A stretch of 32,708 nucleotides of DNA, filler included, from Candidatus Woesearchaeota archaeon (lineage in GTDB: Archaea; Nanobdellota; Nanobdellia; Woesearchaeales; GCA-2687795), in assembly GCA_030753365.1 (NCBI GenBank). It is 3 parts of 3 records of this genome, joined end to end, with 100 filler letters (N's around TTAATTAATTAA, not from the genome) between each part and the next. Parts side by side here need not be neighbours in the genome. Positions count along the whole stretch, not along the records: positions 1 to 13,697 come from JASMCJ010000074.1; 2 more parts are not named here. One strand, written 5' to 3'. The notes under the pieces are model-generated. The model did not search any database. It had not been told where the DNA came from and saw only the letters and a program-made list of their open reading frames with translations. Below, piece after piece: positions 1 through 30,210 of the stretch. Both the position numbers and the translations under genes were made by a program. The stretch's first letter is position 1; each line of letters starts with the position of its first letter.

Positions 1-1
1 A

Positions 2-376
2 GACCTTAGTTTAGAGAAAATCAATGAAATTAAAACAAAGAAAAGTAAAGCTCTTGATATTAACCTTAAGAGAGCTTTCAAGGAGGATAACACTGAGAAA
101 TGGAACATTTATTTCAACAGCTCTAATGTTGGCTTCCTTAACATTAGGTATGGCGAGAAGGTTGAGATTGATCTTGTTGCTGATGAAAGTTTCAGGTTTT
201 TAGAGAAACAACTGCTTGAAGAGCTTAACACTGTTCTTGGCCTCACAAAGATAAGTAGAGAGATCTTGTTTAACAATTATTATTTTGCTCATCATTCTCA
301 TAAGAAACTCAAGAGCAAAAAGCCAAGAAAATTAGTTCTGGGAAATATTGAGATTGGCATGGGATTTAGGGAATAG
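2..376 (+). CDS. 3' part of a hypothetical protein (truncated by window start)
   Basis: Open frame from position 2 (DLSLEKINEIK...) to TAG at 374-376; absent from the ORF track; no family recognised. Confidence 0.7.
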   Translation, partial: DLSLEKINEIKTKKSKALDINLKRAFKEDNTEKWNIYFNSSNVGFLNIRYGEKVEIDLVADESFRFLEKQLLEELNTVLGLTKISREILFNNYYFAHHSHKKLKSKKPRKLVLGNIEIGMGFRE

Positions 377-378
377 AA

Positions 379-816
379 TTATTTTTCTTCAGGTATAATT
401 ATCCAGCATATAATATAAGCAAGAATTCCTGAACCTCCTACAAAAGTAAACAAAACCCATGCTAGCCTTATCAATGTTGGATCAATCCCAAAATATTCTC
501 CTATACCGCCGCACACTCCTCCTAATACTCTATTACTTCTGCTTCTGTAAAGCCGTTTAGTTCCTTTGCCGAATTTCTTCTTTTTAAATGATTTATAGTT
601 TTTATTCACTTTCACAAATAATAGATATATTAATGCTCCTATAAAATTAATGAATATAATAATCAACACCCATATAAGCTTATCGGTAGTATCCAGTTCT
701 GATTTAATACAATCTATCAACATCCAAAGCCAGAATAAGAAAAAGAATAACATCAATGGCAGCATGAACATAGCAAGTCCAACTGTTAAAATCGGTGCAA
801 AGGCTATCCTGAACAT
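379..816 (-). CDS. PspC-domain membrane protein with N-terminal PLDc_N-like hairpin
   Basis: C-terminal KRLYRSRSNRVLGGVCGGIGEYFGIDPTLIRL...LAYIICWIIIPEE is the PspC signature; N-terminal W-M-L-I-D...DKLIWVLIIIF..FIGALIYL resembles PLDc_N. Confidence 0.88.
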   Translation of the reverse strand: MFRIAFAPILTVGLAMFMLPLMLFFFLFWLWMLIDCIKSELDTTDKLIWVLIIIFINFIGALIYLLFVKVNKNYKSFKKKKFGKGTKRLYRSRSNRVLGGVCGGIGEYFGIDPTLIRLAWVLFTFVGGSGILAYIICWIIIPEEK

Positions 817-817
817 T

Positions 818-955
818 TTAAATCATCCCTTCTCCTTCTGTTTCTTCTCTTAAAGTGCAAATCTTCTTTAAATCCCAGTATACATTGCATTCCTTGCCAA
901 ATTTGTTCCATTTCCAGCAGCCCATGCAGCATGGACTTTCAACCTCTTTTTCCAT
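818..955 (-). CDS. 45-aa cysteine-rich microprotein, probably co-transcribed with the PspC gene
   Basis: MEKEVESPCCMGCWKWNKFGKECNVYWDLKKICTLREETEGEGMI*; its stop (818-820) lies 1 nt from the PspC ATG. Confidence 0.65.
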   Translation of the reverse strand: MEKEVESPCCMGCWKWNKFGKECNVYWDLKKICTLREETEGEGMI

Positions 956-1078
956 TTTATATTAATCATAATAACAAAAAAATATAAAGCTTTTGTTTTT
1001 ATATACTCTTATGTTGTTTAACAAAGGCAAACTTATACCATAAAAGCAATGATAATAGTATATCAAGAAGTAAGATTG

Positions 1079-1483
1079 TTAGGCTCTTTTAAAGCAATGA
1101 TAATCAAAGCCTGGATGATTACGTTCAATAGATTTTCCATTTTCATATTCTCCTACAACTACAATACGGGCACTATCTACTAATGTTATAATTGACTTAT
1201 CAAAACATTTTGTGTCCAATAATTCACTGATTGGTAGACCAAGCTTGGTTTGGTCTGGATAGAATGAGCCATACATATTCAGGCAGTCTTTTAATGTCTT
1301 AACATAGAACTTCTTTATAGACTCTGAGCTTATTGAAGGTAGTATCTTCTCAACTATATAACTTCCACCACCTTTTAGCTTATAATCAGAGTCTCCTTTC
1401 TGATATATTAATTCATGCCCTTTTCTAAGTTTTAATGCTTCTGCTAATGTTAACTCTGTTAGGCTTCTCATAGGTATATTCAT
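1079..1483 (-). CDS. hypothetical protein
   Basis: 134-aa ORF filling an otherwise empty interval; no motif recognised. Confidence 0.55.
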   Translation of the reverse strand: MNIPMRSLTELTLAEALKLRKGHELIYQKGDSDYKLKGGGSYIVEKILPSISSESIKKFYVKTLKDCLNMYGSFYPDQTKLGLPISELLDTKCFDKSIITLVDSARIVVVGEYENGKSIERNHPGFDYHCFKRA

Positions 1484-1564
1484 TTTATTTATTTAGAATA
1501 GAGTATCTTTTTTAAATTTACCTCTCAATTAGTAGTAGTTTAGATTATTTTCTTTTTAATTAAC

Positions 1565-1572
1565 TTTATAAA
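1565..1572 (+). promoter_or_regulatory. TATA box of the NFACT-R gene (probably leaderless)
   Basis: TTTATAAA ending 22 nt before ATG 1595. Confidence 0.55.
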
Positions 1573-1594
1573 CAATCTAACCTTATTCTGTTAT

Positions 1595-2395
1595 ATGACT
1601 TCACTAAGCTTAGATTTAAATAAATCCATTGAAAAGAATGCTTCTGTTTACTATGATAAGGCAAAGAAGTTTAAGAAGAAGCTGGCTGGAGCAGAGGAAG
1701 CTCTTAAGAAAACAAAAAGTAAGCTGACCAAGCTTGAAAAACAGAAGAAGTTTGCTGATAATACTTTCCAACAGCAAAAAGAAGTAAAGTCAAGAGAAAA
1801 GAAATGGTATGAGAAGTTCAGATGGTTTATTTCTTCAGAAGGTTTTCTTGTTATTGGCGGCAGAGATGCAACAACCAATGATATTATAATAAAAAAGCAT
1901 ACAGAACCTGATGATGTTGTGTTCCATACAGAGATGCCAGGTTCTCCTTTCTGTGTTATCAAGACTGAAGGCAAGAAGCCTGGCAAGGCAACTTTAGAGG
2001 AAACTGCCCAGTTCTGCGCTGTTAATTCAAGAGCTTTCAGGAGAGGCCTTTTGACCGCAGAGGTTTATCATATCAATCCAGAACAGGTTTCAAAGGAAGC
2101 TCAGAGCGGTGAATATCTAAGTAAAGGTTCTTTTATGATTTATGGTAAAAAGAATTATATTACTGCAGAAGTCAAAACTTTTATTGGAATTCTTGAAGAT
2201 GGCAGTGTTATGTCTGCTTCAGAATCAGCTATGAAGAAACATTGCAAAGCTTATCTTGGCATTGTGGCAGGCAACTCAAAGAAGAGCGAGGTTGCCAAGA
2301 AGCTCCAGAAGTTCTTTATAGAAAAAACAAAGCTCAAAGCAGTCCTTGATGAGATCATGCAGGCATTACCTCCTGGTGATTGCAGGGTTGTTTAA
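1595..2395 (+). CDS. C-terminal half of Rqc2/RqcH (NFACT) protein: second coiled coil plus NFACT-R (DUF814) domain
   Basis: LDLNKSIEKNASVYYDKAKK, WYEKFRWFISSEGFLVIGGRDATTND, FHTEMPGSP, GEYLSKGSFMIYGKKN and terminal DEIMQALPPG are archaeal NFACT C-terminal motifs. Confidence 0.88.
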   Translation: MTSLSLDLNKSIEKNASVYYDKAKKFKKKLAGAEEALKKTKSKLTKLEKQKKFADNTFQQQKEVKSREKKWYEKFRWFISSEGFLVIGGRDATTNDIIIKKHTEPDDVVFHTEMPGSPFCVIKTEGKKPGKATLEETAQFCAVNSRAFRRGLLTAEVYHINPEQVSKEAQSGEYLSKGSFMIYGKKNYITAEVKTFIGILEDGSVMSASESAMKKHCKAYLGIVAGNSKKSEVAKKLQKFFIEKTKLKAVLDEIMQALPPGDCRVV

Positions 2396-2409
2396 CAAAA
2401 CCTTTTTAT
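2396..2409 (+). promoter_or_regulatory. putative archaeal BRE/TATA promoter of the MEP operon
   Basis: CAAAACCTTTTTAT ending 24 nt before the ispG ATG; nearly identical to CAAAACCTTTATAAA upstream of the thermosome gene. Confidence 0.5.
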
Positions 2410-2433
2410 CCTTCTTTAGACTTCTTCTTTTAA

Positions 2434-3471
2434 ATGAGGCATAATACCAGGAAAGTAAAAGTTGGAAAGATATTCATTGGAAGCAACTCTCCTATTTCTA
2501 TCCAGTCAATGTGCAACACTAAGACTTCTGATATTAAAGCTACATTAAACCAAATCAATGAATTAAAAGAGGCTGGCTGTGAAATCATTAGAGTAGCAGT
2601 TCCGGATAAAGAAAGCGTAGAAGCATTAAGAACAATAAAAGAAAACATCACTCTTCCTTTAGTTGCAGACATTCATTTTGACCATAACCTAGCGATTGCT
2701 TCATTAAAGTATGCTGACAAGATTAGAATCAACCCAGGAAATATAGGAAGCATGGATAAAGTAAAAGAAATAATTGAAGCAGCAAAGGAATATCAAAAGT
2801 CTATAAGAATCGGTATCAACTCAGGCTCTTTAGAACAGGATTTAATAAATAAATATGGTGTAAACGAGCTTTCAATGGTTGAATCCTGTTTAAGATACAT
2901 TAAATTCTTTGAAGCTAACGATTTCTATAATATTATTCTTTCATTAAAATCATCTGATGTTACAACAACAATAAAAGCATATCAATTAATCTCAGAAAAG
3001 ACAGATTATCCTTTACATTTAGGTGTTACTGAAGCAGGCACTAGGTTTAGCGGAACTATCAAGTCTTCAGTAGGTATAGGCTCTTTGCTGAGTCAAGGCA
3101 TTGGCGATACTATCAGGGTTTCTTTGACTGATAATCCAGTTGAAGAAGTCAAAGCAGGCTTTGAAATATTAAAATCATTAAATTTAAGAAAGTTTGGCAG
3201 AGAAATCATCAGCTGCCCTACTTGTGGAAGAACTAAAGTAAATCTTATAGAAATTGCGAAAGAAATAGAAGAAAAAACTGAACATATTAAGAAGCCTATT
3301 AAGATTGCTGTGATGGGCTGCGCTGTTAACGGCCCAGGAGAAGCAAGGGAAGCCGATGTTGGCGTTGCTATGGGAGAAAAATCTTTAATTTTCAGCAAAG
3401 GTAAGATTATTGCAAAGGTTGATAATGATGATATTATTCTTGTTTTATTAGAAGAAATAGAAAAGTTATAA
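2434..3471 (+). CDS. ispG: (E)-4-hydroxy-3-methylbut-2-enyl diphosphate synthase
   Basis: IQSMCNT, PLVADIHF, RINPGNIG, RIGINSGSL, HLGVTEAG, GDTIRVSL and Fe-S ligand motifs CPTCGR and MGCAVNGPGEA. Confidence 0.97.
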   Translation: MRHNTRKVKVGKIFIGSNSPISIQSMCNTKTSDIKATLNQINELKEAGCEIIRVAVPDKESVEALRTIKENITLPLVADIHFDHNLAIASLKYADKIRINPGNIGSMDKVKEIIEAAKEYQKSIRIGINSGSLEQDLINKYGVNELSMVESCLRYIKFFEANDFYNIILSLKSSDVTTTIKAYQLISEKTDYPLHLGVTEAGTRFSGTIKSSVGIGSLLSQGIGDTIRVSLTDNPVEEVKAGFEILKSLNLRKFGREIISCPTCGRTKVNLIEIAKEIEEKTEHIKKPIKIAVMGCAVNGPGEAREADVGVAMGEKSLIFSKGKIIAKVDNDDIILVLLEEIEKL

Positions 3472-3472
3472 G

Positions 3473-5323
3473 ATGTACTTAGAGAAAATTGATTCACCTA
3501 AAGATTTGAAGAAGCTTGAGATAGAAAAGCTTCCTGTTCTTGCAGATGAGCTAAGAAAGTTTCTGATAGATAATGTGTCAAAGACTGGCGGCCATTTGGC
3601 ATCAAGCCTTGGCGTTGTGGAGTTGACTATTGCATTGCATTACTGTTTTGACAGCCCTAAGGATAAGATTATTTGGGATGTTGGGCATCAGGCTTATCCT
3701 CATAAGATTCTTACTGGAAGAAGAGACAGGTTTCATACTTTAAGGCAGCATGGAGGGATTAGCGGTTTTCCAAAGATAGATGAGAGTGAGCATGACATTT
3801 TCGGTGTTGGGCATGCAAGCACATCAATCTCTGCTGCTCTTGGGATAGCAAAGGCAAGGGATATTAAGAAAGAAAAGTTTGATGTTGTTTCAGTTATTGG
3901 CGACGGGGCAATGACCGGTGGCATTGCATTGGAAGCTATTAACCAGGCAGGCTACCTTGGCAGCCCTTTTATCTTAATCCTGAATGATAATCGGATGTCA
4001 ATTGCTGCTAATGTTGGAGCGTTGTCTGAATACACTCATAGGATAGCTAAGACTAAGGTGTATAAGGATGTAAAACAGGATATTGATACTATTATTAATA
4101 AGGCTTCAGGTGATATGAAAGGTATTACAGAAAAGCTCAAGGCGCACTTAAAAGAGGTTGGCGCTCCGGGATTATTGTTTGAGAAGCTTGGGTTTAATTA
4201 TATTGGGCCTGTTGACGGGCATGATATTAATAAGTTACTTGAAAGCTTGGAGAATGCAAAACAGATTGAAGGCCCTGTGCTTTTGCATATAATTACAAAG
4301 AAGGGCAAAGGCTATGAATTTTCAGAGAATGATGCAACCAAGTTTCATGGTTTAAGCGCTTTTAATGCAGAGAACGGAAAGGCTCTAAAAAAGAAAACTG
4401 ACAAAAGTTACACAGAAGTGTTTGCAGACACTTTGGTAAGGCTTGCTGATGAAAATGAAAATATTGTTGGGATTACTGCTGCAATGCCTCATGGCACTGG
4501 GTTGATTAAGTTTGCAGAGAAGTATCCTGACAGGTTTTATGATGTTGGCATTGCAGAGCAGCATGCTGTCACTTTTGCCGCAGGCCTGGCAGTTTCAGGT
4601 TTGAAGCCTGTTGTGGCAGTTTATTCAACTTTCCTCCAGCGCGCTTATGACCAGATTGTTCATGATGTTTGCCTGCAGAATCTTCCTATTGTGTTTGCGC
4701 TTGACAGGGCTGGCCTGGTTGGCGAGGATGGGCCAACGCATCATGGCGTGTTGGATCTTACTTACCTTAGAAGTATCCCTAATATGATTGTTATGGCTCC
4801 TAAGGACGAAAATGAGCTTCAACATATGTTAAAAACAGCAATTGACTATAACGGCCCGATTGCAATAAGATATCCTAGAGGAAGCGGATTTGGCATACCA
4901 TTGGATAATAAGCTCCAAAACATAGAAATCGGAAAGAGCGAAACAATAAAGAATGGTAGTGATTTGGTTATAGTTGCAGTTGGCAGTATGGTTTATGAAT
5001 CTTTGGAAGCGGCAAGACTGCTTGAGAAGCAGAATATTGATGCAGCAGTGGTTAATGCAAGGTTTGTTAAGCCTGTTGATAAAGAGATACTAAAAATTAT
5101 TAATGATACTGGTGGGGCAGTGATTGTTGAAGAGAATGCTGTTAAAGGAGGTTTTGGAAGCGCAGTGCTTGAAGAGCTTCATAAAGAAAAGATTGATGCA
5201 CAGGTAACTCAGATAGGCATCCCTGATAAGTTTATAGAACATGGCAGTCAGAAGATTCTTAGAGAGAAGTATGGGTTGACAAGGGATAATATTGTTTTAA
5301 AGTCAAAAGAGTTATTGGAATGA
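3473..5323 (+). CDS. dxs: 1-deoxy-D-xylulose-5-phosphate synthase
   Basis: GGHLASSLG, WDVGHQAYPHK, TPP motif GDGAMTGG...NDN, GIAEQHA, YSTFLQRAYDQ, DGPTHHG. Confidence 0.97.
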   Translation: MYLEKIDSPKDLKKLEIEKLPVLADELRKFLIDNVSKTGGHLASSLGVVELTIALHYCFDSPKDKIIWDVGHQAYPHKILTGRRDRFHTLRQHGGISGFPKIDESEHDIFGVGHASTSISAALGIAKARDIKKEKFDVVSVIGDGAMTGGIALEAINQAGYLGSPFILILNDNRMSIAANVGALSEYTHRIAKTKVYKDVKQDIDTIINKASGDMKGITEKLKAHLKEVGAPGLLFEKLGFNYIGPVDGHDINKLLESLENAKQIEGPVLLHIITKKGKGYEFSENDATKFHGLSAFNAENGKALKKKTDKSYTEVFADTLVRLADENENIVGITAAMPHGTGLIKFAEKYPDRFYDVGIAEQHAVTFAAGLAVSGLKPVVAVYSTFLQRAYDQIVHDVCLQNLPIVFALDRAGLVGEDGPTHHGVLDLTYLRSIPNMIVMAPKDENELQHMLKTAIDYNGPIAIRYPRGSGFGIPLDNKLQNIEIGKSETIKNGSDLVIVAVGSMVYESLEAARLLEKQNIDAAVVNARFVKPVDKEILKIINDTGGAVIVEENAVKGGFGSAVLEELHKEKIDAQVTQIGIPDKFIEHGSQKILREKYGLTRDNIVLKSKELLE

Positions 5324-6459
5324 AAAATATATCAATTTTAGGCTCAACTGGAAGCATTGGAACTCAAACATTAGATGTTATTAGAAATAATAAAGACAGA
5401 TTTAACGTGGTAGGCCTTGCAGTTAATAGCAGTATAGAAGTTCTCAAACAGCAAATTGACGAATTCAATCCAATAGCTGTTTCTGTTTATGATGAAAAGA
5501 AAGCAGAAGAGCTAAAAAAGCAGGTTGATATAGAAATTCTTTCTGGCAAAGAAGGGCTTAACAAGATGGCAACTTTAGAAGAAGCTGATACTGTTATTAC
5601 AAGTGTTGTTGGCTCTATTGGAGTTATTCCAACATTGAAAGCAATACAGGCAAAGAAGAATATAGCATTGGCAAATAAGGAGACATTGGTGACTGCAGGA
5701 GATATTATAATGAAAGAAGTAAAGAAAAATAATGTTAATCTAATGCCAATTGATTCTGAGCATTCTGCTTTATTCCAATGCCTTAATGGAGAAAAGAAAG
5801 AAGACATTAACAGATTAATCATCACATGTTCAGGAGGCTCATTCAGAGGCAGAACAAAGGAAGAGCTGAAAGATGTTACAGTGAAAGAAGCATTGAACCA
5901 TCCAACATGGAACATGGGCGGCAAGATTACTATTGATTCTGCAACCTTAATGAACAAAGGCTTTGAGGTAATAGAAGCTCATCACTTATACAACATTCCT
6001 TATGAGAATATTGATGTTATTATCCATCCTCAGTCTATTATCCATTCAATGATTGAATATGTAGATGGCTCAATAATGTCCCAGTTGGGCATACATGACA
6101 TGAGGCTGCCAATTCAGTATGCTTTGAGTTATCCTAAAAGAATTCCTAACAAATTGCCAAAGCTTTGCTTTGAAGAATACAATTCATTTACATTTAGTAT
6201 TCCAGATATTGAAACCTTTCCCTGCTTAAGATATGCTTATGATGCTGGTAAGATTGGAGGAACTATGCCTTCTGTTATAAATGCAGCTAATGAGGTTGCT
6301 GTCAGAGAATTTCTTAAAGGAAGAATTAGATTCTTACAAATACCTGAAACTATCAGGAAAGCAATGGATACCCATAATTTAATAAAAAATCCAGATATTG
6401 ACGATATTATGAAAGCTGACGAATGGGCTAGAGAGTTTACTGAGGAAGAATTGAGATGA
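5320..6459 (+). CDS. dxr: 1-deoxy-D-xylulose-5-phosphate reductoisomerase
   Basis: GSTGSIG, LANKE, PIDSEH, HPTWNMGGKITIDSATLMNKGFEVIEA, HPQSIIHS, NAANE. Confidence 0.97.
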   Translation: MKNISILGSTGSIGTQTLDVIRNNKDRFNVVGLAVNSSIEVLKQQIDEFNPIAVSVYDEKKAEELKKQVDIEILSGKEGLNKMATLEEADTVITSVVGSIGVIPTLKAIQAKKNIALANKETLVTAGDIIMKEVKKNNVNLMPIDSEHSALFQCLNGEKKEDINRLIITCSGGSFRGRTKEELKDVTVKEALNHPTWNMGGKITIDSATLMNKGFEVIEAHHLYNIPYENIDVIIHPQSIIHSMIEYVDGSIMSQLGIHDMRLPIQYALSYPKRIPNKLPKLCFEEYNSFTFSIPDIETFPCLRYAYDAGKIGGTMPSVINAANEVAVREFLKGRIRFLQIPETIRKAMDTHNLIKNPDIDDIMKADEWAREFTEEELR

Positions 6460-7145
6460 ATATTGCAATTATCTGCGCAGCTGGGAAAGGGAAGAGGATG
6501 AATTCTGATATTAACAAAGTGTTCCTCCTAATAAAGGATAAGCCTATCATCTGGCATACTATCAACACATTCCAGAAAAATGATGCTATTGCCAAAATTA
6601 TTATTGTAACATCAGCAGATGACATAGAGAAGATGAAAGCTATATCAAAAGATTTCATCAAAGTAATCAGCATACTAGAAGGTGGAAAGGAACGCCAGGA
6701 TTCTGTTTATAATGGAATAAAAGAGGCTTCAAAACATTGTGACAATGATGATATTGTTTTAATTCATAACGGCGCTAATCCTTTGGTTAGCCAGGAGACA
6801 ATTAACAAGACTATTGAAGCTGCAAATGAATATGGAGCTTCCGTTGCAGCCATGAAAGTAAAGGATACAATAAAATCATCAACCAAAAATGATTTTGTAA
6901 AAAAGACTCTTGACAGAAACAAGCTTTGGGCTATGCAAACACCACAAGTGATCAGGTTTGGATTAGCAAAGCAGGCTTTTGATAAAGCTTTTGCTGATAA
7001 CTACTATTCTACTGATGATGTTGCGTTGGTTGAGTATATTGGAGAGAAAGTTAAGATTGTTGAATCTAATCCAGAAAATATTAAGATTACAACGCCTAAT
7101 GATATTGTTCTAGCAGAGAATATTTTGGAGAATAAGAATGATTAA
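6456..7145 (+). CDS. ispD: 2-C-methyl-D-erythritol 4-phosphate cytidylyltransferase
   Basis: AAGKGKRM..NK, GGKERQDSV, QTPQ, TDD, NIKITTPND; position in operon; HDxARP motif reads HNGANP. Confidence 0.92.
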   Translation: MNIAIICAAGKGKRMNSDINKVFLLIKDKPIIWHTINTFQKNDAIAKIIIVTSADDIEKMKAISKDFIKVISILEGGKERQDSVYNGIKEASKHCDNDDIVLIHNGANPLVSQETINKTIEAANEYGASVAAMKVKDTIKSSTKNDFVKKTLDRNKLWAMQTPQVIRFGLAKQAFDKAFADNYYSTDDVALVEYIGEKVKIVESNPENIKITTPNDIVLAENILENKND

Positions 7146-7614
7146 GGTTGGAATAGGAAAAGATTCACATAAATTCGGAAGCAATAAACCTCTTATACTT
7201 GGCGGTATAGAAATTCCTTCAGAACAGGGCTTTGAATCACATTCAGATGGTGATGTTGTGCTGCATGCCTTATTTAATGCTATTTCATCAGCGTTAGGTG
7301 GTGGAAGTATAGGCTATTATTACCCTAATGATGATTCTTCTAATTATAATAAGGTTAGTAAAGAATTCTTTGAGAAAATATATGAACTGCTGAAGCAAAA
7401 TAATTACAAAGTTTGCAACATTTCAATCACAATAGAAGCTAAACAGCCAAAGCTTGAGCCTCATTTCCCAGCTATGAGGAAATCAATCGCAGACATTTGC
7501 GAAACTGATATAAACTCTGTTGGTATCACTGCAACAACTGGTGAAGGTTTGACCGCTTTTGGGAAAGGAGAAGGGATACAGGTAATAGCAATGGTGAGTT
7601 TAATACAATGTTGA
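7138..7614 (+). CDS. ispF: 2-C-methyl-D-erythritol 2,4-cyclodiphosphate synthase
   Basis: GIGKDSH, LILGG, HSDGDVVLHA, ATTGEGL..GKGEGI. Confidence 0.95.
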   Translation: MIKVGIGKDSHKFGSNKPLILGGIEIPSEQGFESHSDGDVVLHALFNAISSALGGGSIGYYYPNDDSSNYNKVSKEFFEKIYELLKQNNYKVCNISITIEAKQPKLEPHFPAMRKSIADICETDINSVGITATTGEGLTAFGKGEGIQVIAMVSLIQC

Positions 7615-8453
7615 CAGAAAAATCCTATGCACGTATAACTTTAGCTCTAGACATTCTAAAGAAACTGAAAGGTGGAGATTTAGAGGGCTATCATAAGCTT
7701 AACATCATAAAGCATCAGATTAATCTCTATGATATAGTCAGTGTAGAAGAAGCTAATAAGACTGAAATAATCTGCAATAATCCTCATGTTCCAAAGGATA
7801 ACACAAATCTCTGCTGGAAGGTTGTTGACTTGTTGAAGCAGGAATGTAAGATAAACAAGAGCATAAAGCTAACCATTGAAAAGAACATTCCAATACAAGG
7901 TGGCCTTGCAGGCGGCTCTTCGAATGCAGCAATAACTTTAATATTGCTTAATAAACTATGGAACCTCAACTTATCAGAACAGCAGTTAATACAATCTGCA
8001 AGAAAAGTTAGCATGGATGCTCCTTATTACATTATAGGTAATACTGCTTTTGACACTGAAATATCAACATTAGAAAAAATGAATACTAATCTAAACCTTA
8101 ATTTCATTATAATCCTACCAGAATTTGGCGTTTCAACAACTAACGCATATAAGAATATAGATTATAATTATATTGCAAAATTCAATCATAAGACTAAGAC
8201 AATGAGAGAAGCAATACAAAACAATACCAAAGAAGAGGTTATTAAGAATATGCATAATGATTTTGAGTTAAGTGTTTTCTCAAAATATCCTGAACTAAAA
8301 AAAATAAAGAATGATTTAATTCATTCAGGCTGCCTTAATGCAGTTATGAGCGGCTCAGGCTCTGCAATGATAGGAATTGCAGAGAGTAAAGAACATGCAT
8401 TAGAAATTAAACAGAAGTTACCTTATAACTCTATTATTACATCCTCAAAATGA
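7608..8453 (+). CDS. ispE: 4-diphosphocytidyl-2-C-methyl-D-erythritol kinase (GHMP kinase)
   Basis: GYH, NL, KNIPIQGGLAGGSSNAA, VSTT.AY, NDFE, MSGSGS; position in operon. Confidence 0.93.
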   Translation: MLTEKSYARITLALDILKKLKGGDLEGYHKLNIIKHQINLYDIVSVEEANKTEIICNNPHVPKDNTNLCWKVVDLLKQECKINKSIKLTIEKNIPIQGGLAGGSSNAAITLILLNKLWNLNLSEQQLIQSARKVSMDAPYYIIGNTAFDTEISTLEKMNTNLNLNFIIILPEFGVSTTNAYKNIDYNYIAKFNHKTKTMREAIQNNTKEEVIKNMHNDFELSVFSKYPELKKIKNDLIHSGCLNAVMSGSGSAMIGIAESKEHALEIKQKLPYNSIITSSK

Positions 8454-9262
8454 ACCTTACAAAAGCAAAATACTCAGGCTTCTGCTTTGGAGTGAAGAAA
8501 GCACTGGATATTGTAGATAACCTTAAAGGAGATAATGCCTATATCTTAGGTGAACTTATCCACAATCCTCAGGTTATAGAAAAGCTAAAGGAAAGAGGAA
8601 TCCAAATACTAGAAGATATTAATGATATAACTAAAGGGACTATTGTGATTTCTGCTCATGGCATGCCTGATTCTGCTATAAAACAATGCAAAGGATTGAA
8701 TGTTATTGATGCTACCTGTCCTTTGGTTAAAAAGGTTCATATGATTTCAAAAGAGTTTGAAACAGAAGGTTTTACTACTTTAATCTTTGGCGATAAGCAT
8801 CATCAGGAGGTTAAAGGAACTGCTGGCAACCTTAAAGATTGTTTGATTGCTTCAAATATTGAAGAACTAAAAGCTCTTGACCTGAACAGAAAGATTGGCA
8901 TAGTTTCCCAGACTACACAGGAAGTTGAGAAGTTTAACAAGATAGTTGATTATGTTAAAGACAAAGCAAAGGAAACAAAGGTCTATAACACTATCTGCTC
9001 TGCAACAAGACAGAGGCAGGAAGCTGCAGCAGAGCTTGCTAAAACAATGGATTTAGTTATAGTTATTGGTGGCTATAATAGCGCAAATACAGTAAAGCTA
9101 AAGGACATTTGCTCAGAAATCACTGAAACAAAGCATATTGAGTCAACTAATGAATTGAAAGAAGAATGGTTCAAAGGTAAGCAAAACATAGGTATCACTG
9201 CTGGAGCTTCTACTCCTGAATGGGTTATTGAAGAGGTTGTTGAGAAAATAAGCTCATTCTAG
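8450..9262 (+). CDS. ispH: 4-hydroxy-3-methylbut-2-enyl diphosphate reductase
   Basis: GFCFGV, IHN, SAHG, DATCPLV, SQTT, NTICSAT..RQ, SANT, GITAGASTP; all three Fe-S cysteines present. Confidence 0.96.
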   Translation: MNLTKAKYSGFCFGVKKALDIVDNLKGDNAYILGELIHNPQVIEKLKERGIQILEDINDITKGTIVISAHGMPDSAIKQCKGLNVIDATCPLVKKVHMISKEFETEGFTTLIFGDKHHQEVKGTAGNLKDCLIASNIEELKALDLNRKIGIVSQTTQEVEKFNKIVDYVKDKAKETKVYNTICSATRQRQEAAAELAKTMDLVIVIGGYNSANTVKLKDICSEITETKHIESTNELKEEWFKGKQNIGITAGASTPEWVIEEVVEKISSF

Positions 9263-9277
9263 CAAAACCTTTATAAA
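9263..9277 (+). promoter_or_regulatory. archaeal BRE/TATA promoter of the thermosome gene
   Basis: CAAAACC-TTTATAAA, followed by a GGGGG ribosome-binding-like run at 9306-9310 before ATG 9320. Confidence 0.65.
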
Positions 9278-9319
9278 GCGAATTTAATTCGTCATATATA
9301 CTATAGGGGGAATTACAAA

Positions 9320-10957
9320 ATGGCAGATCAACAAGTACAACCAATATTTATTTTACCAGAAGGGACACAGAGAACTTCTGGCAAGAATGCTCAAAGAACT
9401 AATATTATGGCAGCTAAGTTAGTAGCTGAGACTGTTAGAACTACTTTAGGCCCTAAGGGTATGGATAAGATGTTGGTTGATTCTTTAGGAGATGTTACTG
9501 TTACTAATGATGGTGTTACAATTCTTGAAGAGATGAACATTGAACATCCTTCTGCAAAAATGATTGTTGAGGTTGCCAAGACTCAGGAAGATGAGGTTGG
9601 CGATGGAACTACAACTGCAGTGATTCTTGCAGGAGAATTGCTTAAGAACGCAGAAATCTTGTTAGATCAGGATATCCATCCTACTGTTATTGCAAAAGGT
9701 TATAGGATTGCTGCAAATAAATCACAGGAAGTTCTCAACCAGATTGCTGAAAAGATAACTGAAAAGGATGAAGATCTTCTTAAAAATATTGCAACCACCG
9801 CTATGACTGGCAAAGGCGCTGAATCTTCAAAGGAAAAGCTTGCAGAGCTAGCAGTTAGGGCTGTTAAACAGGTTATGGATACTGAGAATGGTGTTTTTAT
9901 TGATAAGGATAATATTAAGATTGAAAAGAAAGTTGGAAGTTCTGTTGATAATTCTGAGTTAATCCAGGGCATTGCCATTGACAAGGAAAAGGTTCATTCA
10001 GGCATGCCAAGACTGGTTAAGAATGCAAAGATTGCATTGATTGATTCTGCTGTAGAGGTTAAGAGCACTGAAACTGATGCTAAGATACAGATTAATGATC
10101 CTAACCAGATGCAGGCTTTCCTTGACCAGGAAGAGAAGATGCTTAAGGATATGGTTGAAAAGATTGTTAAGAGCAATGCTAATGTTGTTTTCTGCCAGAA
10201 AGGCATTGACGACATTGCCCAGCATTTCCTTGCAAAGAAAGGCATTTATGCTTCAAGAAGGGTTAAGAAGAGTGATATGGAAGGCCTTTCAAGGGCTACA
10301 GGCGCTAAGATTATTACTAACTTAGATGACTTGTCTGCTGCAGATTTAGGTAAGGCAGGCATTGTTGAAGAGACTAAGATAGGCGATGAAGATATGACTA
10401 TTGTAAAAGAGTGCAAGAACCCAAGAGCTGTAACTCTTTTGGTTAGAGGAGCTACAGAACATGTTATTGATGAGGTTAAACGAGCTGTTGAAGATGCTAT
10501 TGGTGATGTGTCAGCAGCTTTGAAGAATAATAAAGTTGTTGCAGGCGCAGGCTCTCCTGAGATTGAGCTTGCCAGAAATTTAAGAAAGTTTTCCGAAAGC
10601 TTATCAGGAAGAGAGCAATTAGCTGTCCAGGCTTTTGCAGATTCTGTTGAGATTATCCCAAGAACTTTAGCAGAGAATGCTGGCTTAGACCCTATAGACA
10701 TTCTTACAGAACTTAAAGCAGCGCATGACAAAGATAAGAAATGGCATGGTATTGACGTTTTCACAGGTAAAATTGTTGATGCTTGGAGCAAGGGCGTTTT
10801 AGAGCCTTTAAAAATCAAGACTCAGGCTGTTAGCTCAGCTAGTGAGGTTGCAATCATGATTTTAAGGATTGATGATCTTATTGCATCTTCAGGCGGAGGA
10901 GCTAAAGGCGGTATGCCAGATATGATGCCTCCTGGTGGAATGCCTCCAGGATACTAA
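9320..10957 (+). CDS. ths: thermosome subunit (group II chaperonin)
   Basis: [56 protein letters not shown] and a GGM-rich tail. Confidence 0.97.
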
Positions 10958-12207
10958 CCTTCTTCTTTCCCAACATTCATTTTCAAGAAATACTTTGAAA
11001 GCTTTATCATAATAGTTGATGTAATTATTGAATATAATATGAATGCCAAGCTTAAGTTAAGAACAACTTGAGCTCCTGGTAATGATATAAACGGAACAGT
11101 TACAAGATTTCCTATTCCTTTTACTATTTCTGTTGTTGTGAACATATAAGTTGTCAATATGAATATTACCACTGCTACTGCTATGCCTTTCTGGACATTA
11201 AAAGACATGAATATCCTTTCTCTTAAGTTATACTCTTTAGAAAATAATAGCTGGATTGTGCCAAACCTTATTATCAGATATATAAGGAATAGTGTAAATG
11301 ATTTAACTAGAAATCTTGTGTTTAACGGAATGTTAATTATAAACCCTACTAGCACAAACACTAATATTTGCAGTGAGCTTGCAAACACGCTTGAAAACTC
11401 CTGCAAAACATTCTTTTCCTTTAGATAAACATTGCCAAAGAAGATTCCCATCACTGTTACAGCAAGTACACCATTGCCACCAAGGTTTTCTGCCAGGATA
11501 TATGTTAGCAATGTGGCTGTTATGATTGCCAAAGGACTTAATGTTTCTGAATACTTCCTTTTCATTAGCTTAAATACTATTATTCCTACTAATATGCCTG
11601 CTCCTATCCCTGCAACAAATTGCTGTAAGAAAGGTGATATTTGTTCTATGATTTTTGACATTACTAATTCTTTCTTTATGGTTCCCATAAGGTCTAATAT
11701 TATGAATGGCATCAGAACTATAAGAGGAGTATTGATTATTGATTCTATTTCCAGCATTTCTATTACTTTATTTTTGGTTTGTTTGAACATTGTAAACACT
11801 GTTGAAGGATCTGTGCCAGACATTAATGCTGCAAACATCACAGCAAGGTAATATGAAGGTATTTTGAATATCATTACTGCAAAGAAAGAAAGGAATATCA
11901 TGTTTGCCAGAAGGAACACGGCAGATAATTTTAATGTTTTAACTGAAAACAGATCAAATTCTTTCATCTTTAGCCTTGAAGACGAATCAAACACTATCAT
12001 TACTAACGCAAGTATTCCTATTGATGTTAAGAATATGTCTGGAAACTGGAATAATGGCTGTTCATTGTATGTTATCTTATTTAACAGAATACCAGTTAGT
12101 ATGAGAAAAAGGATGTTAGGCAGACCAAGCTTTCTTGATATTAATGTGGATATTATGCCTATTAATAGGATTATTCCTAAGTATGTTAAAAACACAAGTG
12201 CTTCCAT
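10954..12207 (-). CDS. cation:proton antiporter (CPA1/NhaP type)
   Basis: Highly hydrophobic multi-pass protein, GTDP motif, IESIINTP (ES..ND-like), GNGVLAV; GAGGTGA ribosome-binding site at 12211-12217; convergent 4-nt overlap with the thermosome stop. Confidence 0.88.
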
Positions 12208-12258
12208 GGTTCACCTCTCTTTAATGGTTTAGAAATTTCCTTCTTAATATAGTTTTCC

Positions 12259-12269
12259 TTTCCGCCCTA
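12259..12269. repeat. left arm of a perfect 11-bp inverted repeat bracketing the RelBE-like module
   Basis: TTTCCGCCCTA; exact reverse complement at 12781-12791. Confidence 0.75.
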
Positions 12270-12284
12270 ATTAGAAAAATTTAT

Positions 12285-12306
12285 ATACTATAGCTGATTA
12301 TAGTAT
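12285..12306. promoter_or_regulatory. palindromic operator candidate overlapping the TA promoter
   Basis: ATACTATA-N6-TATAGTAT between the TTTATATA box and the antitoxin ATG. Confidence 0.5.
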
Positions 12307-12309
12307 GCT

Positions 12310-12531
12310 ATGGTAACTACAATACAAATAAGTGGAAATTTACAGAATGAGTTAACAGATAGAAAGATTTCTGATAGAGAGACCTATGAAGAAATTATAT
12401 GGGATCTGATAGAAGACACTAAAGAGCTATCTGAAGAAACTAAAAGAGAAATTAAAGAATCCAGAGAAGAATTTAAAGAAGGAAAGTTCTCTACTCTTGA
12501 AGATGTTGAAAGACGACTTGGAATAAGGTGA
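12310..12531 (+). CDS. antitoxin (RelB-like/DUF7557-like, acidic)
   Basis: MVTTIQIS...RETYEEIIWDLIED...ELSEET...EFKEGKFSTLEDV; small acidic protein directly upstream of a RelE toxin. Confidence 0.8.
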   Translation: MVTTIQISGNLQNELTDRKISDRETYEEIIWDLIEDTKELSEETKREIKESREEFKEGKFSTLEDVERRLGIR

Positions 12532-12534
12532 GTT

Positions 12535-12783
12535 ATGTATCAAGTAATATTCACACCTAACTCTGAGAAACAGTTAAAGAAACTTCCTAAAGATATTCAA
12601 GTCAGAATTATTAATGCACTAAAAAGAATTAGAATTAGACCTGAGTCTTATCTTACAAAATTAGTTGATGATCCTGCGTATAAGTTTAGAGTAGGAGATT
12701 ACAGATTAATTATTGATGTTATTCATGATAAACTTATTCTATTGGTTGTAAAAATAGGACATAGAAGGAATGTATATCAATAG
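12535..12783 (+). CDS. relE: RelE/ParE-family toxin
   Basis: MYQVIFT..SEKQLKKL, YKFRVGDYRLI, VVKIGHRRNVY; AGGTGA ribosome-binding site upstream. Confidence 0.9.
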   Translation: MYQVIFTPNSEKQLKKLPKDIQVRIINALKRIRIRPESYLTKLVDDPAYKFRVGDYRLIIDVIHDKLILLVVKIGHRRNVYQ

Positions 12784-12791
12784 GGCGGAAA
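12781..12791. repeat. right arm of the 11-bp inverted repeat; contains the relE stop codon
   Basis: TAGGGCGGAAA. Confidence 0.75.
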
Positions 12792-12796
12792 TAAAA

Positions 12797-12824
12797 ATTG
12801 AATATAACCCTTGTTATATTCTCG
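12797..12824. other. dif-like tyrosine recombinase site 1 (11-6-11)
   Basis: ATTGAATATAA-CCCTTG-TTATATTCTCG; ATAA-N6-TTAT core; on the minus strand one arm reads TTATATTCAAT versus the E. coli XerD arm TTATGTTAAAT. Confidence 0.55.
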
Positions 12825-12902
12825 AGCCTACGAAGTGGGCGAGACAAGCGAACGAAGTGAGTGAAGAGTTTAGAAAAAGACTACATATAAAGCACGAAGT
12901 GC
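12820..12902. repeat. cluster of GAA-loop mini-hairpins (ACGAAGTG x3)
   Basis: GCCTAC-GAA-GTGGGC 12826-12840 inside a TCTCG/CGAGA stem; GAACGAAGTGAG 12850-12861; GCAC-GAA-GTGC 12892-12902. Confidence 0.65.
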
Positions 12903-12921
12903 AATCAAAGAAAAGAATAAA

Positions 12922-12934
12922 AGGCGGAAAAAGT
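12922..12934. repeat. left arm of a perfect 13-bp inverted repeat bracketing the GDT1 gene
   Basis: AGGCGGAAAAAGT; exact reverse complement at 13514-13526; abuts the GDT1 stop. Confidence 0.75.
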
Positions 12935-13479
12935 CAAAAAAAGCAAAGTACACCAATGATGATAAATAAAATCCCTGCAATGTATGATACCCTTTTTCGA
13001 TTGATTTCCTTAATAATAAATTTACCTAAATAAACAGCTAATATCGATAGGATAACTAATACAGAGATAACACCTAAAAACACCCACAATGCATTAAATT
13101 TTGTTGCAAATAATCCAGAAACAATTTGGGTTTTATCCCCCATTTCAGATAATAGTATTATTCCAAACCCCGAAAGAAATGGGCTTTTTAGATCACATTT
13201 AGCATCATCTTCTTTATTGTTTGTTAAAGTAATGATTCCGAAAATTAAAAATATTATACCTGAGAATATTTTAATAAATTTTAGAGGTATAATATTTGTT
13301 ATATAATCGCCCAAAAGGATGGCTAATCCATCTGTTATGATGAATGCTAAAATCACACCAAGCAATAATTGAAAATATTTTTTTGTTTTTGAAGCTAAAC
13401 AAAATACAGCAATTTGTGTTTTATCTCCTAGTTCAGCTAATCCGACAGCGATAAAAGGTATAATAAAATCTTGCCACAT
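12934..13479 (-). CDS. TMEM165/GDT1 (UPF0016) family Ca2+/Mn2+ transporter
   Basis: Two copies of the signature motif: AELGDKTQI and SEMGDKTQI. Confidence 0.93.
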   Translation of the reverse strand: MWQDFIIPFIAVGLAELGDKTQIAVFCLASKTKKYFQLLLGVILAFIITDGLAILLGDYITNIIPLKFIKIFSGIIFLIFGIITLTNNKEDDAKCDLKSPFLSGFGIILLSEMGDKTQIVSGLFATKFNALWVFLGVISVLVILSILAVYLGKFIIKEINRKRVSYIAGILFIIIGVLCFF

Positions 13480-13513
13480 ATTATTGTTTTTTGCATCACT
13501 ATTAATAAATTTA

Positions 13514-13526
13514 ACTTTTTCCGCCT
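13514..13526. repeat. right arm of the 13-bp inverted repeat
   Basis: ACTTTTTCCGCCT. Confidence 0.75.
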
Positions 13527-13550
13527 CATGTATTTAAGGTCTTTTTCTAA

Positions 13551-13577
13551 ATTGAACATAATTGTGTTATATTCCCT
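13551..13577. other. dif-like site 2 (11-5-11), direct orientation relative to site 1
   Basis: ATTGAACATAA-TTGTG-TTATATTCCCT; minus-strand arm TTATGTTCAAT matches the E. coli XerD arm at 10/11; spacer one base shorter than canonical. Confidence 0.45.
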
Positions 13578-13697
13578 CTCTGGCTGGAGCCAAAGGCGAC
13601 CCGAGAGAGGTCGAGGAGCGGAACGAAGTGAGCACCGCAGAAGTAAGCCGCAGGAATTTGCCAATCTTAAGGGGGTGGAGGGGGATATTCCCCACCA
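13574..13697. repeat. GC-rich multi-hairpin non-coding element running into the assembly gap
   Basis: GCC-AAA-GGC, CGACC...GGTCG, GCGG-AACGAAGTGAGCA-CCGC, GGGGA-TAT-TCCCC; shares GAACGAAGTGAG with 12850-12861. Confidence 0.6.
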
Positions 13698-27144: not shown

Positions 27145-27840
27145 CTAATCAACGAACCTGTACTTCACTAAATATAAAATCGCTTTGACACCGTCTCTCC
27201 AGCTTATCTTTTTTCCTTCATTAAAGTTTCTGCAGTTGTAGCTTATGGGGATTTCAATTATTTTGTAACCTTTCTTTAAAATCTTTGCTGTTATCTCAGG
27301 CTCGAAGTCAAACCTTTTTGCTTTTAGTGTTAGTGAGTTAAGAACATCTTTTGTGAATACTTTGTAGCAGGTTTCCATGTCGCTGATCCATCTTAAGTAT
27401 AGGATGGAAGTTGTGATAGAGAGCAGCTTGTTTCCTATATAATGAGAGGGAATGCCCCATCTTTCTTTTCCTAGGAGGGGCTTTTTCATGAATCTTGAGC
27501 CATAGACTACTTTTGTTTTTCTTTCTAAAATTGGCTTTAATAGCTTAGAATATTCATCAGGATTGTATTCGTGATCTGCATCCTGTATGATGATTATGTC
27601 ACCTGTGATATGTTTTAAGCCGGTCCTTATTGCAGAGCCTTTGCCTTTATTTTTTTCATGGAAGAATACTTTGTGACCTTTTATTTTGACTAATAGATCT
27701 TTTGTTCCATCTGTTGAGAAGTCATCTATTATGATTATCTCTTTCTTAAGCTTTCCAATGTCTGCTGCCTCAACTTTCTTGAGCAGAGAGAGTATTGTGC
27801 TTTTCTCGTTATAAACCGGGATTATTATGCTGAGTATCAT
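27145..27840 (-). CDS. GT2 glycosyltransferase (polyprenol-phosphate glycosyltransferase / DPM synthase-like)
   Basis: SIIIPVYNE, DDFSTDGT, NKGKGSA, IQDADHEY, VYGSRF, DMETCYK, FEPEIT. Confidence 0.92.
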   Translation of the reverse strand: MILSIIIPVYNEKSTILSLLKKVEAADIGKLKKEIIIIDDFSTDGTKDLLVKIKGHKVFFHEKNKGKGSAIRTGLKHITGDIIIIQDADHEYNPDEYSKLLKPILERKTKVVYGSRFMKKPLLGKERWGIPSHYIGNKLLSITTSILYLRWISDMETCYKVFTKDVLNSLTLKAKRFDFEPEITAKILKKGYKIIEIPISYNCRNFNEGKKISWRDGVKAILYLVKYRFVD

Positions 27841-30184
27841 TTTTTTCCTTTATCTTTTTTATTTTCTTATAACTAAAATATCCTATGATTAAGATTAAGG
27901 TTATTGCGGTTATATATAAGCCAGTAGTGTAAGATCTTGGTTTGTATTCAAATATTATGTTATTTTCATTTCCTTCCAGATAAACAGAGCTTATCATGGC
28001 GTTGGCGTTTAGAATTTGCTTTGTATTTCCATCAGCTAAAGCTGTCCAGCCAGGGAATACTGAAAACTTTTCGCTGATGACTAAGAAGCCTTTATATTTT
28101 TTGTTTAGTTTGATTTCCCGTTTGTCAAAATTGTGCATTATTATGTCTTTGTCTGGTATTTGGATTAAGGTATTGTTATTAAGAGAGTTCCATAGCCTTG
28201 TTAATTCTTCTTCTGTGATAATGTTCTTGTTTTTTGTTATGTCAGGTATTAGGGTGCCGCCTGAATTGATATAATCTTCTAATGTAAATATTGAATTTTG
28301 GTCAATGGAACCTTTTTCTAATACTACTGCAGTGTATCTTTTTAATTCCTGTAAGCTATAATCATTTACTCTTTTCTTTCCTCTTATTACTACCGTGCTG
28401 CTTGAGCTAAAATTACCGTTGAGTATTAAGCCATAAATAGCCCTTGTGGCACTTTCCCATTCTCCTACTACTAGAATACTGTTGCTTGCAATAAATGCTC
28501 TTGGCAAGGATTCTTCATTTTCGTAGAGGTAAGGCCCCCAGGCTTTTTTCAAAGGCTCAACTTTTGGGAAACAGACACTGCAATTCTCAAACTTTTTTAT
28601 GAGCTTAAATCCTGAAACATCTATCTCTTCTGTTGCTGTAATATCATCCATTTCTTTTGTTGATGTGATATACTTTACATTCAGAATTCCCCAGAGTTTT
28701 GAAGGCTGTGAGTTTGCAAGACCTAAGTAAACGTTCATGTAAGGAACATACCATGTTGAGTCGTATCTGTATATATGCTCTAGTTTTAATGGTATGTTGT
28801 AAAAGTCAGTGGCCCAGTCAATTCCTCTTGTTTCCCAAGTTTGTATTCTGAATGTGCCAGGCTGTTTGCTGAGGTATTGTAGTATATGATTGTTTTCTAT
28901 TGCGCTTCTTGCATCAACCCATTCTTTTGTGGAGCCTTCTGTAAAATGGCTGTAATTGAATGTCCATAGGTTTAGGATGATTAAGGAGACTAAAGCAATG
29001 TAGATTAATTTTTTGTGTTTCTTAACATGCTTAAGAAGTTCCTGTGCTCCTATGCCTGCGAGTATGGAAGCAGAGAAACAGAATAGGAATAAGCTTCTGT
29101 CCAAGTATCTTAAGCTGTCGAAGAATGGTATATATTTCCATAGGAAGTAATAGAATGAAAATGTGTTGTTTGCTATCATGATGGATAATAATGCAGTGAA
29201 TGAGAAGAATAGGACGATTTTGTTTTTGTGTTTTTTGAATAGGGCAAAGCATACCAATAAAAAGGCAATGATTCCTATATGGTCACCGTTTCCTTCTGCT
29301 CTTTGAACTTTTGGCATTCCCTTATAGATTGGTTCTATTAGCCTGTTGAACATGTCAGGGTTTTTTAGCTGTCTTGAAGAGGCTTTTTTCCAGGGAGTTT
29401 GTCCTCTGCTGCTTACTTCAAGATAATCTATATTGGGAATTATCCTTTGGGCGGATAGTCCAAAGAAGATGATTACTATGAGAAGGTAGACCATACAACT
29501 TCTAAAGAGTTTTCTTTTAGAGAACTTGCTGAATATATGGAATAAGAAGTAAAAGAAGAGTACAAGGCCGAGCCAGATTCCTATTTTCATGTCAGGGTTA
29601 AACCTGAATAGTATTGCATAGAGGATTCCTGTGATTATTGAATTTTTAACCCAATTCTTTTCTCTTAGTGATTTCATGACAAACATGAATACCAAAGGCA
29701 TTATTGCATAGCCTCCTAAGGTTGTGAGCCAGCCCCAGGGCAGGAGCCTTGAGCTTACATGGCCGTTTAGTATGTAAACAAGAGAGGCAATGAAGGCGAA
29801 CTTTTTTTGGACTTTGAGATAGTTCATGAGAATGTACATAGAGAGCCCTGAGAGAAAGAAGGCAAGAACATAACTCATCTTGAGGGCTATTAATGTGTCT
29901 GGAATTAGAAGTATCATTATTCCCTGAATACTGTCAAAGCCAAACTCTGGCTTCATGAGGAAGGGTGTTCCGCTGAACCCATATGGGATCCATAATGGCC
30001 AGATGTCGTGATAGTCGAATAGAGAGATCTTTAATACTTCTGTAAAAGGATAGTATGCTGTTGCTATGTCATGAGCCGGGACTTTATGATTGTAGAAGCC
30101 TATAAAGAATACAAATGTTAAGAGCAGAAGAGCTAGAATGTAAATTAGATGGTTGCTTAATTTATTTTTAATGTTTAATTTCAT
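27809..30184 (-). CDS. YfhO-like membrane glycosyltransferase (GT-C), paralogue 2
   Basis: D...YYP, PLW.PY.FSGTPF, LYEN...LPRAF, FLVISEK...PGW.A, IIFEYKP; start placed at ATG 30184 by alignment with its paralogue. Confidence 0.8.
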   Translation of the reverse strand: MKLNIKNKLSNHLIYILALLLLTFVFFIGFYNHKVPAHDIATAYYPFTEVLKISLFDYHDIWPLWIPYGFSGTPFLMKPEFGFDSIQGIMILLIPDTLIALKMSYVLAFFLSGLSMYILMNYLKVQKKFAFIASLVYILNGHVSSRLLPWGWLTTLGGYAIMPLVFMFVMKSLREKNWVKNSIITGILYAILFRFNPDMKIGIWLGLVLFFYFLFHIFSKFSKRKLFRSCMVYLLIVIIFFGLSAQRIIPNIDYLEVSSRGQTPWKKASSRQLKNPDMFNRLIEPIYKGMPKVQRAEGNGDHIGIIAFLLVCFALFKKHKNKIVLFFSFTALLSIMIANNTFSFYYFLWKYIPFFDSLRYLDRSLFLFCFSASILAGIGAQELLKHVKKHKKLIYIALVSLIILNLWTFNYSHFTEGSTKEWVDARSAIENNHILQYLSKQPGTFRIQTWETRGIDWATDFYNIPLKLEHIYRYDSTWYVPYMNVYLGLANSQPSKLWGILNVKYITSTKEMDDITATEEIDVSGFKLIKKFENCSVCFPKVEPLKKAWGPYLYENEESLPRAFIASNSILVVGEWESATRAIYGLILNGNFSSSSTVVIRGKKRVNDYSLQELKRYTAVVLEKGSIDQNSIFTLEDYINSGGTLIPDITKNKNIITEEELTRLWNSLNNNTLIQIPDKDIIMHNFDKREIKLNKKYKGFLVISEKFSVFPGWTALADGNTKQILNANAMISSVYLEGNENNIIFEYKPRSYTTGLYITAITLILIIGYFSYKKIKKIKEKNDTQHNNPGL

Positions 30185-30210
30185 TTTGTTTGATGCTTGT
30201 GTTTTATACA

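Follow-up and report, generated by a model that had tools for sequence, protein, structure and literature searches.

The window, by which we mean the whole analysed stretch of 32,708 nucleotides including filler, comes from the genome of a Candidatus Woesearchaeota archaeon (GCA_030753365.1, here G000), and its first part (positions 1-13,697) is contig C74, which holds both sites considered here. As an earlier note on this DNA had described, two dif-like sites in the same orientation surround a minus-strand GDT1 gene, and the site pattern matched twice in the window compared with 0.00 matches expected from 100 shuffles. Site 1 (12797-12824, plus strand) is composed of a left arm at 12797-12807, with which a toxin-antitoxin unit ends, a 6-bp spacer, and a right arm from 12814 (GDT1 cassette start). 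Site 2 (13551-13577, plus strand) has its left arm at 13551-13561 (GDT1 cassette end), followed by a 5-bp spacer and a right arm with which the next unit, termed U, starts. The designation as dif-like holds, as the left arm of site 1 equals the P. abyssi dif except for one of 11 positions, as far as the excerpted text of PMC2958812 gives that sequence. The enclosed gene (12934-13479, minus strand) encodes a GDT1-family divalent cation/proton antiporter of 181 aa (PF01169, E 2e-40).

On the other side of site 1, a ParE/RelE-family toxin gene (12535-12783, plus strand; PF05016, E 3.9e-10) is directly preceded by a 73-aa ORF (12310-12531, plus strand), which gave no Pfam match and is a likely antitoxin; similar ORFs precede toxins in the array of another genome, G070. 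An 11-bp inverted repeat at the start of this unit (12259-12269) pairs with 12781-12791 and likely marks where an older cassette began, one that has since lost its own site to decay; upstream of 12797, the site profile detected no site scoring at least 14 in the window contig. Two further features of the window were recorded. A complete bacterial-type MEP isoprenoid cluster (ispG, dxs, dxr, ispD, ispF, GHMP kinase, ispH) is located at 2434-9262 of this archaeal DNA; such clusters have previously been reported from Woesearchaeota. On contig C78, two long minus-strand ORFs (27809-30235 and 30320-32635) share 300-nt stretches with 81-82% identity and are likely tandem paralogs unlinked to the array.

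Both sites are followed by hairpin elements, which had been taken for the same element each time. They do share mini-hairpin words and the 12-mer GAACGAAGTGAG, found exactly at 12850 and 13621 and elsewhere in the genome only in the overlap copy on contig C44, but they are not copies of one unit, and a blastn search of the region against the genome gave no alignment between the two. They are different cassette-start elements. The element of the GDT1 cassette (12825-12934, plus strand) contains three top-strand C-GAA-G mini-hairpins at 12831, 12853, and 12895 and two 13-bp start repeats (12869-12881 and 12922-12934), which pair with the cassette end, where two repeats (13514-13526 and 13539-13551) are perfect 13-bp complements of both.

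The end of C74 overlaps the start of C44 by 141 nt, and seven other contig pairs overlap alike; since the join runs through a repeat, it does not set the distance between the two contigs. The assembly break within a repeat had been correctly anticipated, but the repeat is the 185-bp unit U, which begins with the spacer of site 2, and not a second copy of site, hairpin, and cargo. U is a gene-less cassette (13562-13697, plus strand, continuing on C44) present in multiple copies in the population. On C44, outside the window, it lies directly 5' of a terminal, attI-like site (C44:180) with a third left arm and a degenerate right side. This is followed by a plus-strand tyrosine recombinase gene (C44:452-1282, 276 aa) facing away from the sites. 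As the earlier note had stated, the window itself contains no recombinase gene, but one is encoded just past the break.

The multiplicity of U is reflected in public sequencing runs, most of those containing this DNA being marine. In four of four runs from four studies, contig depth rose from 11.4, 11.3, 6.4, and 35.8 over GDT1 to 69, 72, 43, and 230 over U, i.e., approximately 6-fold relative to the GDT1 side as the sole baseline; this depth adds up contigs regardless of organism and should not be read as a copy number. In these four runs, contigs with differing upstream DNA met at 13549-13557, and one of the upstream sequences was the end of U itself. A search of metagenome contigs with the start of U returned eight loci (fetched loci carry L-numbers), of which the eighth, L099, repeats the arrangement of the window. 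Considering the window and seven public contigs, U follows seven different cassette ends and precedes three different cassette starts. L101 reads W-U and L105 reads W-V-U, with W 100% identical over 1607 nt and the joins located at the site; likewise, L104 (X-U) and L103 (X-V) diverge at a site join. These contigs are filled and empty forms joined at the site, and cassettes occur in different orders among close relatives. Empty junctions, proposed earlier as a check, were therefore present in public contigs as filled/empty pairs, but none was found for the GDT1 cassette and no circular cassette form was seen. From the varied neighbours of U and the filled/empty pairs, it follows that further cassettes probably lie between C74 and C44. 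The unit of the array is also not the tandem unit of site, hairpin, and cargo suggested before: comparison of junctions showed that a cassette comprises spacer and right arm, mini-hairpin element, zero to three genes, and the left arm of the next site.

The GDT1 cassette is located at the distal end of the cassette array. No joint skipping it was found in the contigs of the four runs, its end is constant in these runs and in L099, and none of 19 GDT1 homologs in 400 other genomes (36-67% identical) is flanked by sites. These results do not support mobility of this particular cassette, and GDT1 as a widely mobile cassette was rejected given the 0/19 homologs. Cassettes without genes, 81-185 bp long, frequently take turns with those carrying cargo (L068, L087, L205, L200, L051, L049, and window 13562-13697), and one immediately precedes the terminal site in each of G000, G220, G021, and G036; they may be adapters, promoter carriers, or selfish minimal cassettes. 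Elsewhere in G000, an orphan site with a cassette-start element was noted between housekeeping genes (C64:10378) and a start element alone at C8:12001-12065, both start elements resembling those in the population contigs L100 and L104.

In this genome and its relatives, the motif occurs above background. Of 401 genomes of the order, 108 contain the relaxed pattern, compared with 14 when it was reversed as a control, and each of these 14 held a single match; in other orders of the class, it matched in 20 of 62 genomes versus one in the control (hand count). With the strict pattern, 12 of 301 genomes of the order were found versus none in the control, and four of the 12 looked coding or isolated on inspection. 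Ten genomes flagged as unpublished (G109, G128, G173, G193, G195, G197, G282, G319, G394, and G499) are included in genome tallies only and in no array analysis. Loci were fetched for multiple pattern matches or a nearby recombinase, and the arrays are thus a selected rather than a random set. A site profile trained on 79 sites of the chosen arrays (score threshold 14) yielded 161 sites in 33 arrays, all in direct repeat and up to 10 per locus, after one opposite-strand match in L087, inside an ORF 11 kb away, had been dropped. The 5-bp spacer of site 2, formerly listed as a caveat, is an ordinary variant, with 5 bp in 29 and 6 bp in 132 of the 161 sites.

As the earlier note had envisaged, cargo in the interval differs among relatives. 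The median cassette measures 782 bp, and the 128 intervals comprise 22 empty ones, 61 with one ORF, and 45 with more. A Pfam match was obtained for 65 of 143 cargo ORFs, including eight NUDIX, five ParE, four MFS, and three PIN proteins as well as methyltransferases, hydrolases, and an HNH nuclease, while 78 had none; the 143 ORFs are 140 of 144 listed plus three from population contigs, and Pfam tallies were made by hand. With mechanical ORF calls, 98 cargo genes run on the same strand as the site and 103 on the opposite one. In G096, a single contig of 1.13 Mb, all eight sites form one 10.6-kb cluster beside the recombinase at 1,045-1,056 kb, about 75-120 kb from the skew maximum at 925-970 kb. 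Arrays are surrounded by thermosome and other chromosomal genes. No array site was found in the same-genus genome G001 (75% complete), and none of six loci gave an Rfam match. Searched with one pattern, 45 viral contigs matched, but the site was never followed by a mini-hairpin and never belonged to a cassette array; these single matches without hairpins are regarded as chance, so that no viral carrier was found with this pattern. Site-like matches before rpl21e on C27 and C38 were also discarded (no spacer TG, score below 14). Independently of this, the two contigs carry diverged copies of the rpl21e-rpoF region, possibly from a second strain or contamination.

The arms of a cassette belong together. 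In 115 cassettes shorter than 2.6 kb, 77.6% of the five variable positions are complementary between the right arm and the left arm that follows, compared with 59.7 ± 2.1% after permutation within arrays, where none of 2000 permutations reached the observed value; the two arms within one site pair at 55.2%, which is not above permuted. Outside the arms, the end that best complements a cassette start is that of the same cassette in 71 of 86 cases versus 19 expected, and single strands with such complementary ends are predicted to fold. The spacer was identical in 51 of 71 pairs with common downstream DNA versus one of 11 with common upstream DNA; these pairs are not independent, U or V being part of 34 of the 51. 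Since the spacer goes with the downstream cassette, the join is placed at, or just before, its first base, which coincides with the spacer edge at which Xer enzymes cut according to the excerpted text of PMC8371274. The spacer ends on the right in a near-invariant TG (G in 160 of 161 sites); cutting at the left edge would leave this TG unexplained. Spacers of neighbouring sites differ and are 5 or 6 bp long. In 150 elements, C-GNA-G mini-hairpins were counted 154 times on the top strand and 10 times on the bottom strand, with 12 in shuffled sequence. Loops of the C-GNA-G type are especially stable in single-stranded DNA. Predicted folding energies were nearly equal for the two strands, both overall (-13.1 vs -12.6 kcal/mol) and for the GDT1 cassette (-38.9 vs -39.6), and folding energy was abandoned as a strand discriminator because it did not clearly separate the strands.

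A XerA-family enzyme, of the kind for which the earlier note had proposed a search, is encoded at C44:452-1282. It scored 218 bits against NF040815 (cut-off 220), matched PDB entries 4a8e and 5hxy, and stayed below the cut-offs for IntI, XerC, and XerD, with 194 bits for TIGR02249 (cut-off 265). Its alignment with V. cholerae IntI4 (2a3v) breaks around an insert of approximately 40 residues that is missing from the C44 enzyme, and the corresponding motif distance is 59 aa in the array enzyme vs 100 in insert-bearing proteins. Trees (FastTree without bootstrap, and a quick tree) unite the recombinases encoded next to arrays in a single branch with support 99. The other DPANN XerA-like proteins are its neighbours, and insert-bearing IntI-like proteins stand apart; the best PDB match had suggested IntI as the sister group, but the tree gave this no support. 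With a nine-member clade profile, scores exceeded about 320 bits in 61 of 301 genomes. At least three sites were present in 13 of these 61 genomes vs 8 of 240 without the clade, or 9 of 52 vs 8 of 240 with the seeds excluded, where related genomes are not independent; eight of the 21 genomes with at least three sites have no clade match, these genomes being incomplete. Scored by eye, a terminal site precedes 17 of 22 clade genes vs none of 13 other XerA-like genes. It lies about 107-272 bp before the recombinase ORF start and shows a good left arm, a spacer usually ending in T, and then usually ATAT or ATAG. Three of the 13 other genes have instead a separate palindromic site 129-299 bp 5' of the gene (L089 in G304, L091 in G220, and L059 in G027), which is probably the true chromosomal dif; G220 possesses an array as well. 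In G096, the array-clade protein is the sole full-length XerA-like match and may therefore do both jobs there. A scan of two of 64 GTDB parts with the clade alignment returned mostly distant recombinases, and one of 40 examined loci had a site.

A second XerA-like recombinase of G000 (C13:592-1476) has a single upstream site (C13:413) near the break at the contig start; its separate branch is common to G001, G050, G070, and G010, and it is possibly a second platform. Upstream of both recombinases, the motif CACTGGTCA was observed (C44:301-390 and C13:465-540), mostly in the form of two boxes separated by about 60-80 bp. The other positions are C8:58242-58312, C21:5585-5675, C58:3495-3585, and C69:23221, among them the presumed promoter of a small ORF preceding a radA-like gene (radA assigned by eye). 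The motif is present in G001 and G039, and is missing from most other array loci. It may be a DNA-damage operator, in parallel to the SOS control of intI.

Taken together, the locus is very probably a cassette system moved by an Xer-family enzyme. At a probability of roughly 0.6, we favour the fuller model that a XerA paralog encoded downstream of the array moves cassettes as folded top-strand ssDNA. The gene would be looped out as the single strand of a cassette folds, and two neighbouring sites would pair into one dif-like substrate. The enzyme would then cut the top strand only, after the invariant TAA, and rejoin it to give a single-stranded circle, for which spacer homology would not be needed, and the product would become fixed upon replication. 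Insertion of new cassettes would take place mostly at the terminal site before the recombinase gene, so that old ones, such as the GDT1 cassette and the toxin-antitoxin unit, would end up farthest from it. The mechanistic template is the folded ssDNA substrate attP of CTXphi, as presented in the excerpt of PMC3089051. We infer the action of the array-adjacent enzyme, the folded top-strand substrate, the replicative resolution, and the terminal-site preference from the comparisons above. Several observations count against the full model, namely the spacer TG, the equal folding energies, the eight of 21 genomes without the clade, the circle that was not seen, and the enzyme's missing IntI insertion.

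The last point would be less of a concern if the same array and dedicated recombinase relied on double-stranded exchange, either of two strands or of one strand with replicative resolution, while hairpins and paired ends act afterwards, e.g., to prime or protect a released circle. The 11-6-11 form of dif kept in 132 of 161 sites agrees with this, as does the action of P. abyssi and T. acidophilum XerA on double-stranded dif described in the excerpt of PMC8371274. However, neighbouring sites have unlike spacers of 5 or 6 bp, the spacer tracks the downstream cassette only, and arm complementarity exists within cassettes and not within sites, whereas a protein-binding site on double-stranded DNA needs none; we thus regard this course as unlikely. 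More doubtful still is that cassettes borrow the housekeeping XerA in the manner of IMEX or dif modules, the adjacent recombinase being incidental or interchangeable. Arrays in G304 and G070, where no array-clade protein was found, and the possible double role of the G096 protein would fit, but terminal sites stand before array-clade genes only (17/22 vs 0/13), other XerA-like genes have their own palindromic dif at three of 13 loci, including that of array-bearing G220, and genomes with at least three sites are enriched for the array clade.

We see very little chance that a trans-acting HUH nuclease of the IS200/IS605 TnpA or RAYT type moves the cassettes via ssDNA hairpins and that the likeness to dif is a relic. 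HUH substrates typically feature mini-hairpins on a specific DNA strand and joins of one strand, and the top-strand hairpin bias would be explained; conservation, however, is centred on the Xer-type arms, the join lies at the Xer cleavage position on the edge of arm and spacer, and it is a tyrosine recombinase that adjoins the arrays. Equally improbable are operators or terminators that play no role in recombination. Each site does resemble one, being a short intergenic palindrome followed by hairpins, but hairpin strand is independent of gene direction, all eight G096 sites sit in one 10.6-kb cluster by the recombinase, Rfam gave no match in six loci, and the precise filled/empty junction pairs contradict such a role unless contigs were misassembled.

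To our knowledge, integrons are the only well-known system that collects and reorders single genes by site-specific recombination. If the model is true, a second integron built from Xer/dif parts would represent convergent evolution and offer a direct test of how an Xer enzyme without an I2 domain may come to recombine ssDNA cassettes, a puzzle raised in the excerpted part of PMC4792948. The recombinase, acting as a single enzyme, seems tolerant of unlike spacers. From a practical perspective, such a hypervariable locus breaks assemblies, attC-based tools miss the arrays, and these hold many uncharacterized accessory genes (no Pfam match for 78 of 143 cargo ORFs). The earlier note knew of no description in DPANN, and our search of openly accessible papers likewise found no dif-bounded cassette arrays in DPANN; some of the loci may be contained in the lists of archaeal integrons of PMC9668308.

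For comparison with known systems, the cited papers are considered as far as their excerpted text goes. In the dif modules of Acinetobacter (PMC6449649), dif-like sites likewise enclose toxin-antitoxin pairs and small genes of adaptive value. However, these modules are plasmid-borne and depend on host XerC/D, while the present arrays lie on the chromosome, have an enzyme gene next to them, and consist of cassettes with paired ends. The proposed assignment to dif modules is not borne out, since pdif sites have inverse orientation according to the title of Blackwell and Hall 2017 (cited in PMC6449649), whereas all 161 sites here are direct. Neither is that to IMEX elements: CTXphi is a phage using host XerC/D at the chromosomal dif (PMC3089051), in contrast to gene cassettes with their own adjoining recombinase at a locus that is not the chromosomal dif, and the single-pattern search of viral contigs revealed no carrier. 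The 11-6-11 site and the enzyme family are shared with archaeal XerA/dif (Cortez et al. 2010, PMC2958812; PMC8371274), but dif is single-copy and palindromic within the site, whereas these sites are multi-copy with variable spacers and complementarity across cassettes. Strand-biased circularizing integrative elements (PMC9345347, PMC10214605) also possess a tyrosine recombinase and are reported to circularize one strand preferentially; by their description, they are set apart as self-contained elements of Gammaproteobacteria, unlike these arrays of non-autonomous cassettes.

The closest likeness in layout is to integrons, including the archaeal ones (Ghaly et al. 2022, PMC9668308), with which the system shares an array of small cassettes, gene-less cassettes, and complementary cassette starts and ends. 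The recombinase gene also faces away from the adjacent attachment site with the array behind it (17/22 loci), the cargo includes toxin-antitoxin and functionally unassigned genes, and single-strand recombination is likely here as well. On the other hand, integrons use the IntI insertion to handle single-stranded sites, whereas the array enzyme has none and groups with DPANN XerA. Its sites are 27-28 bp, dif-like, and joined after the left-arm TAA instead of being attC; a simple pattern for attC-type end pairs (RYYYAAC...GTTRRRY, without covariance model) matched at only three of 165 sites between -60 and +200. Integron cassettes are generally co-oriented, while cargo here faces both ways (98 vs 103). 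The system is thus integron-like in its working, yet it departs from integrons in IntI, attC, and co-orientation and lacks the defining features of dif modules and IMEX elements; it likely arose separately from bacterial integrons. On balance, we lean slightly towards a second, independent DPANN integron that captures and reorders folded ssDNA with a duplicated XerA and split dif sites but no IntI domain, occurs in about a fifth of Woesearchaeales, and would be a living model of the route from Xer to integron.
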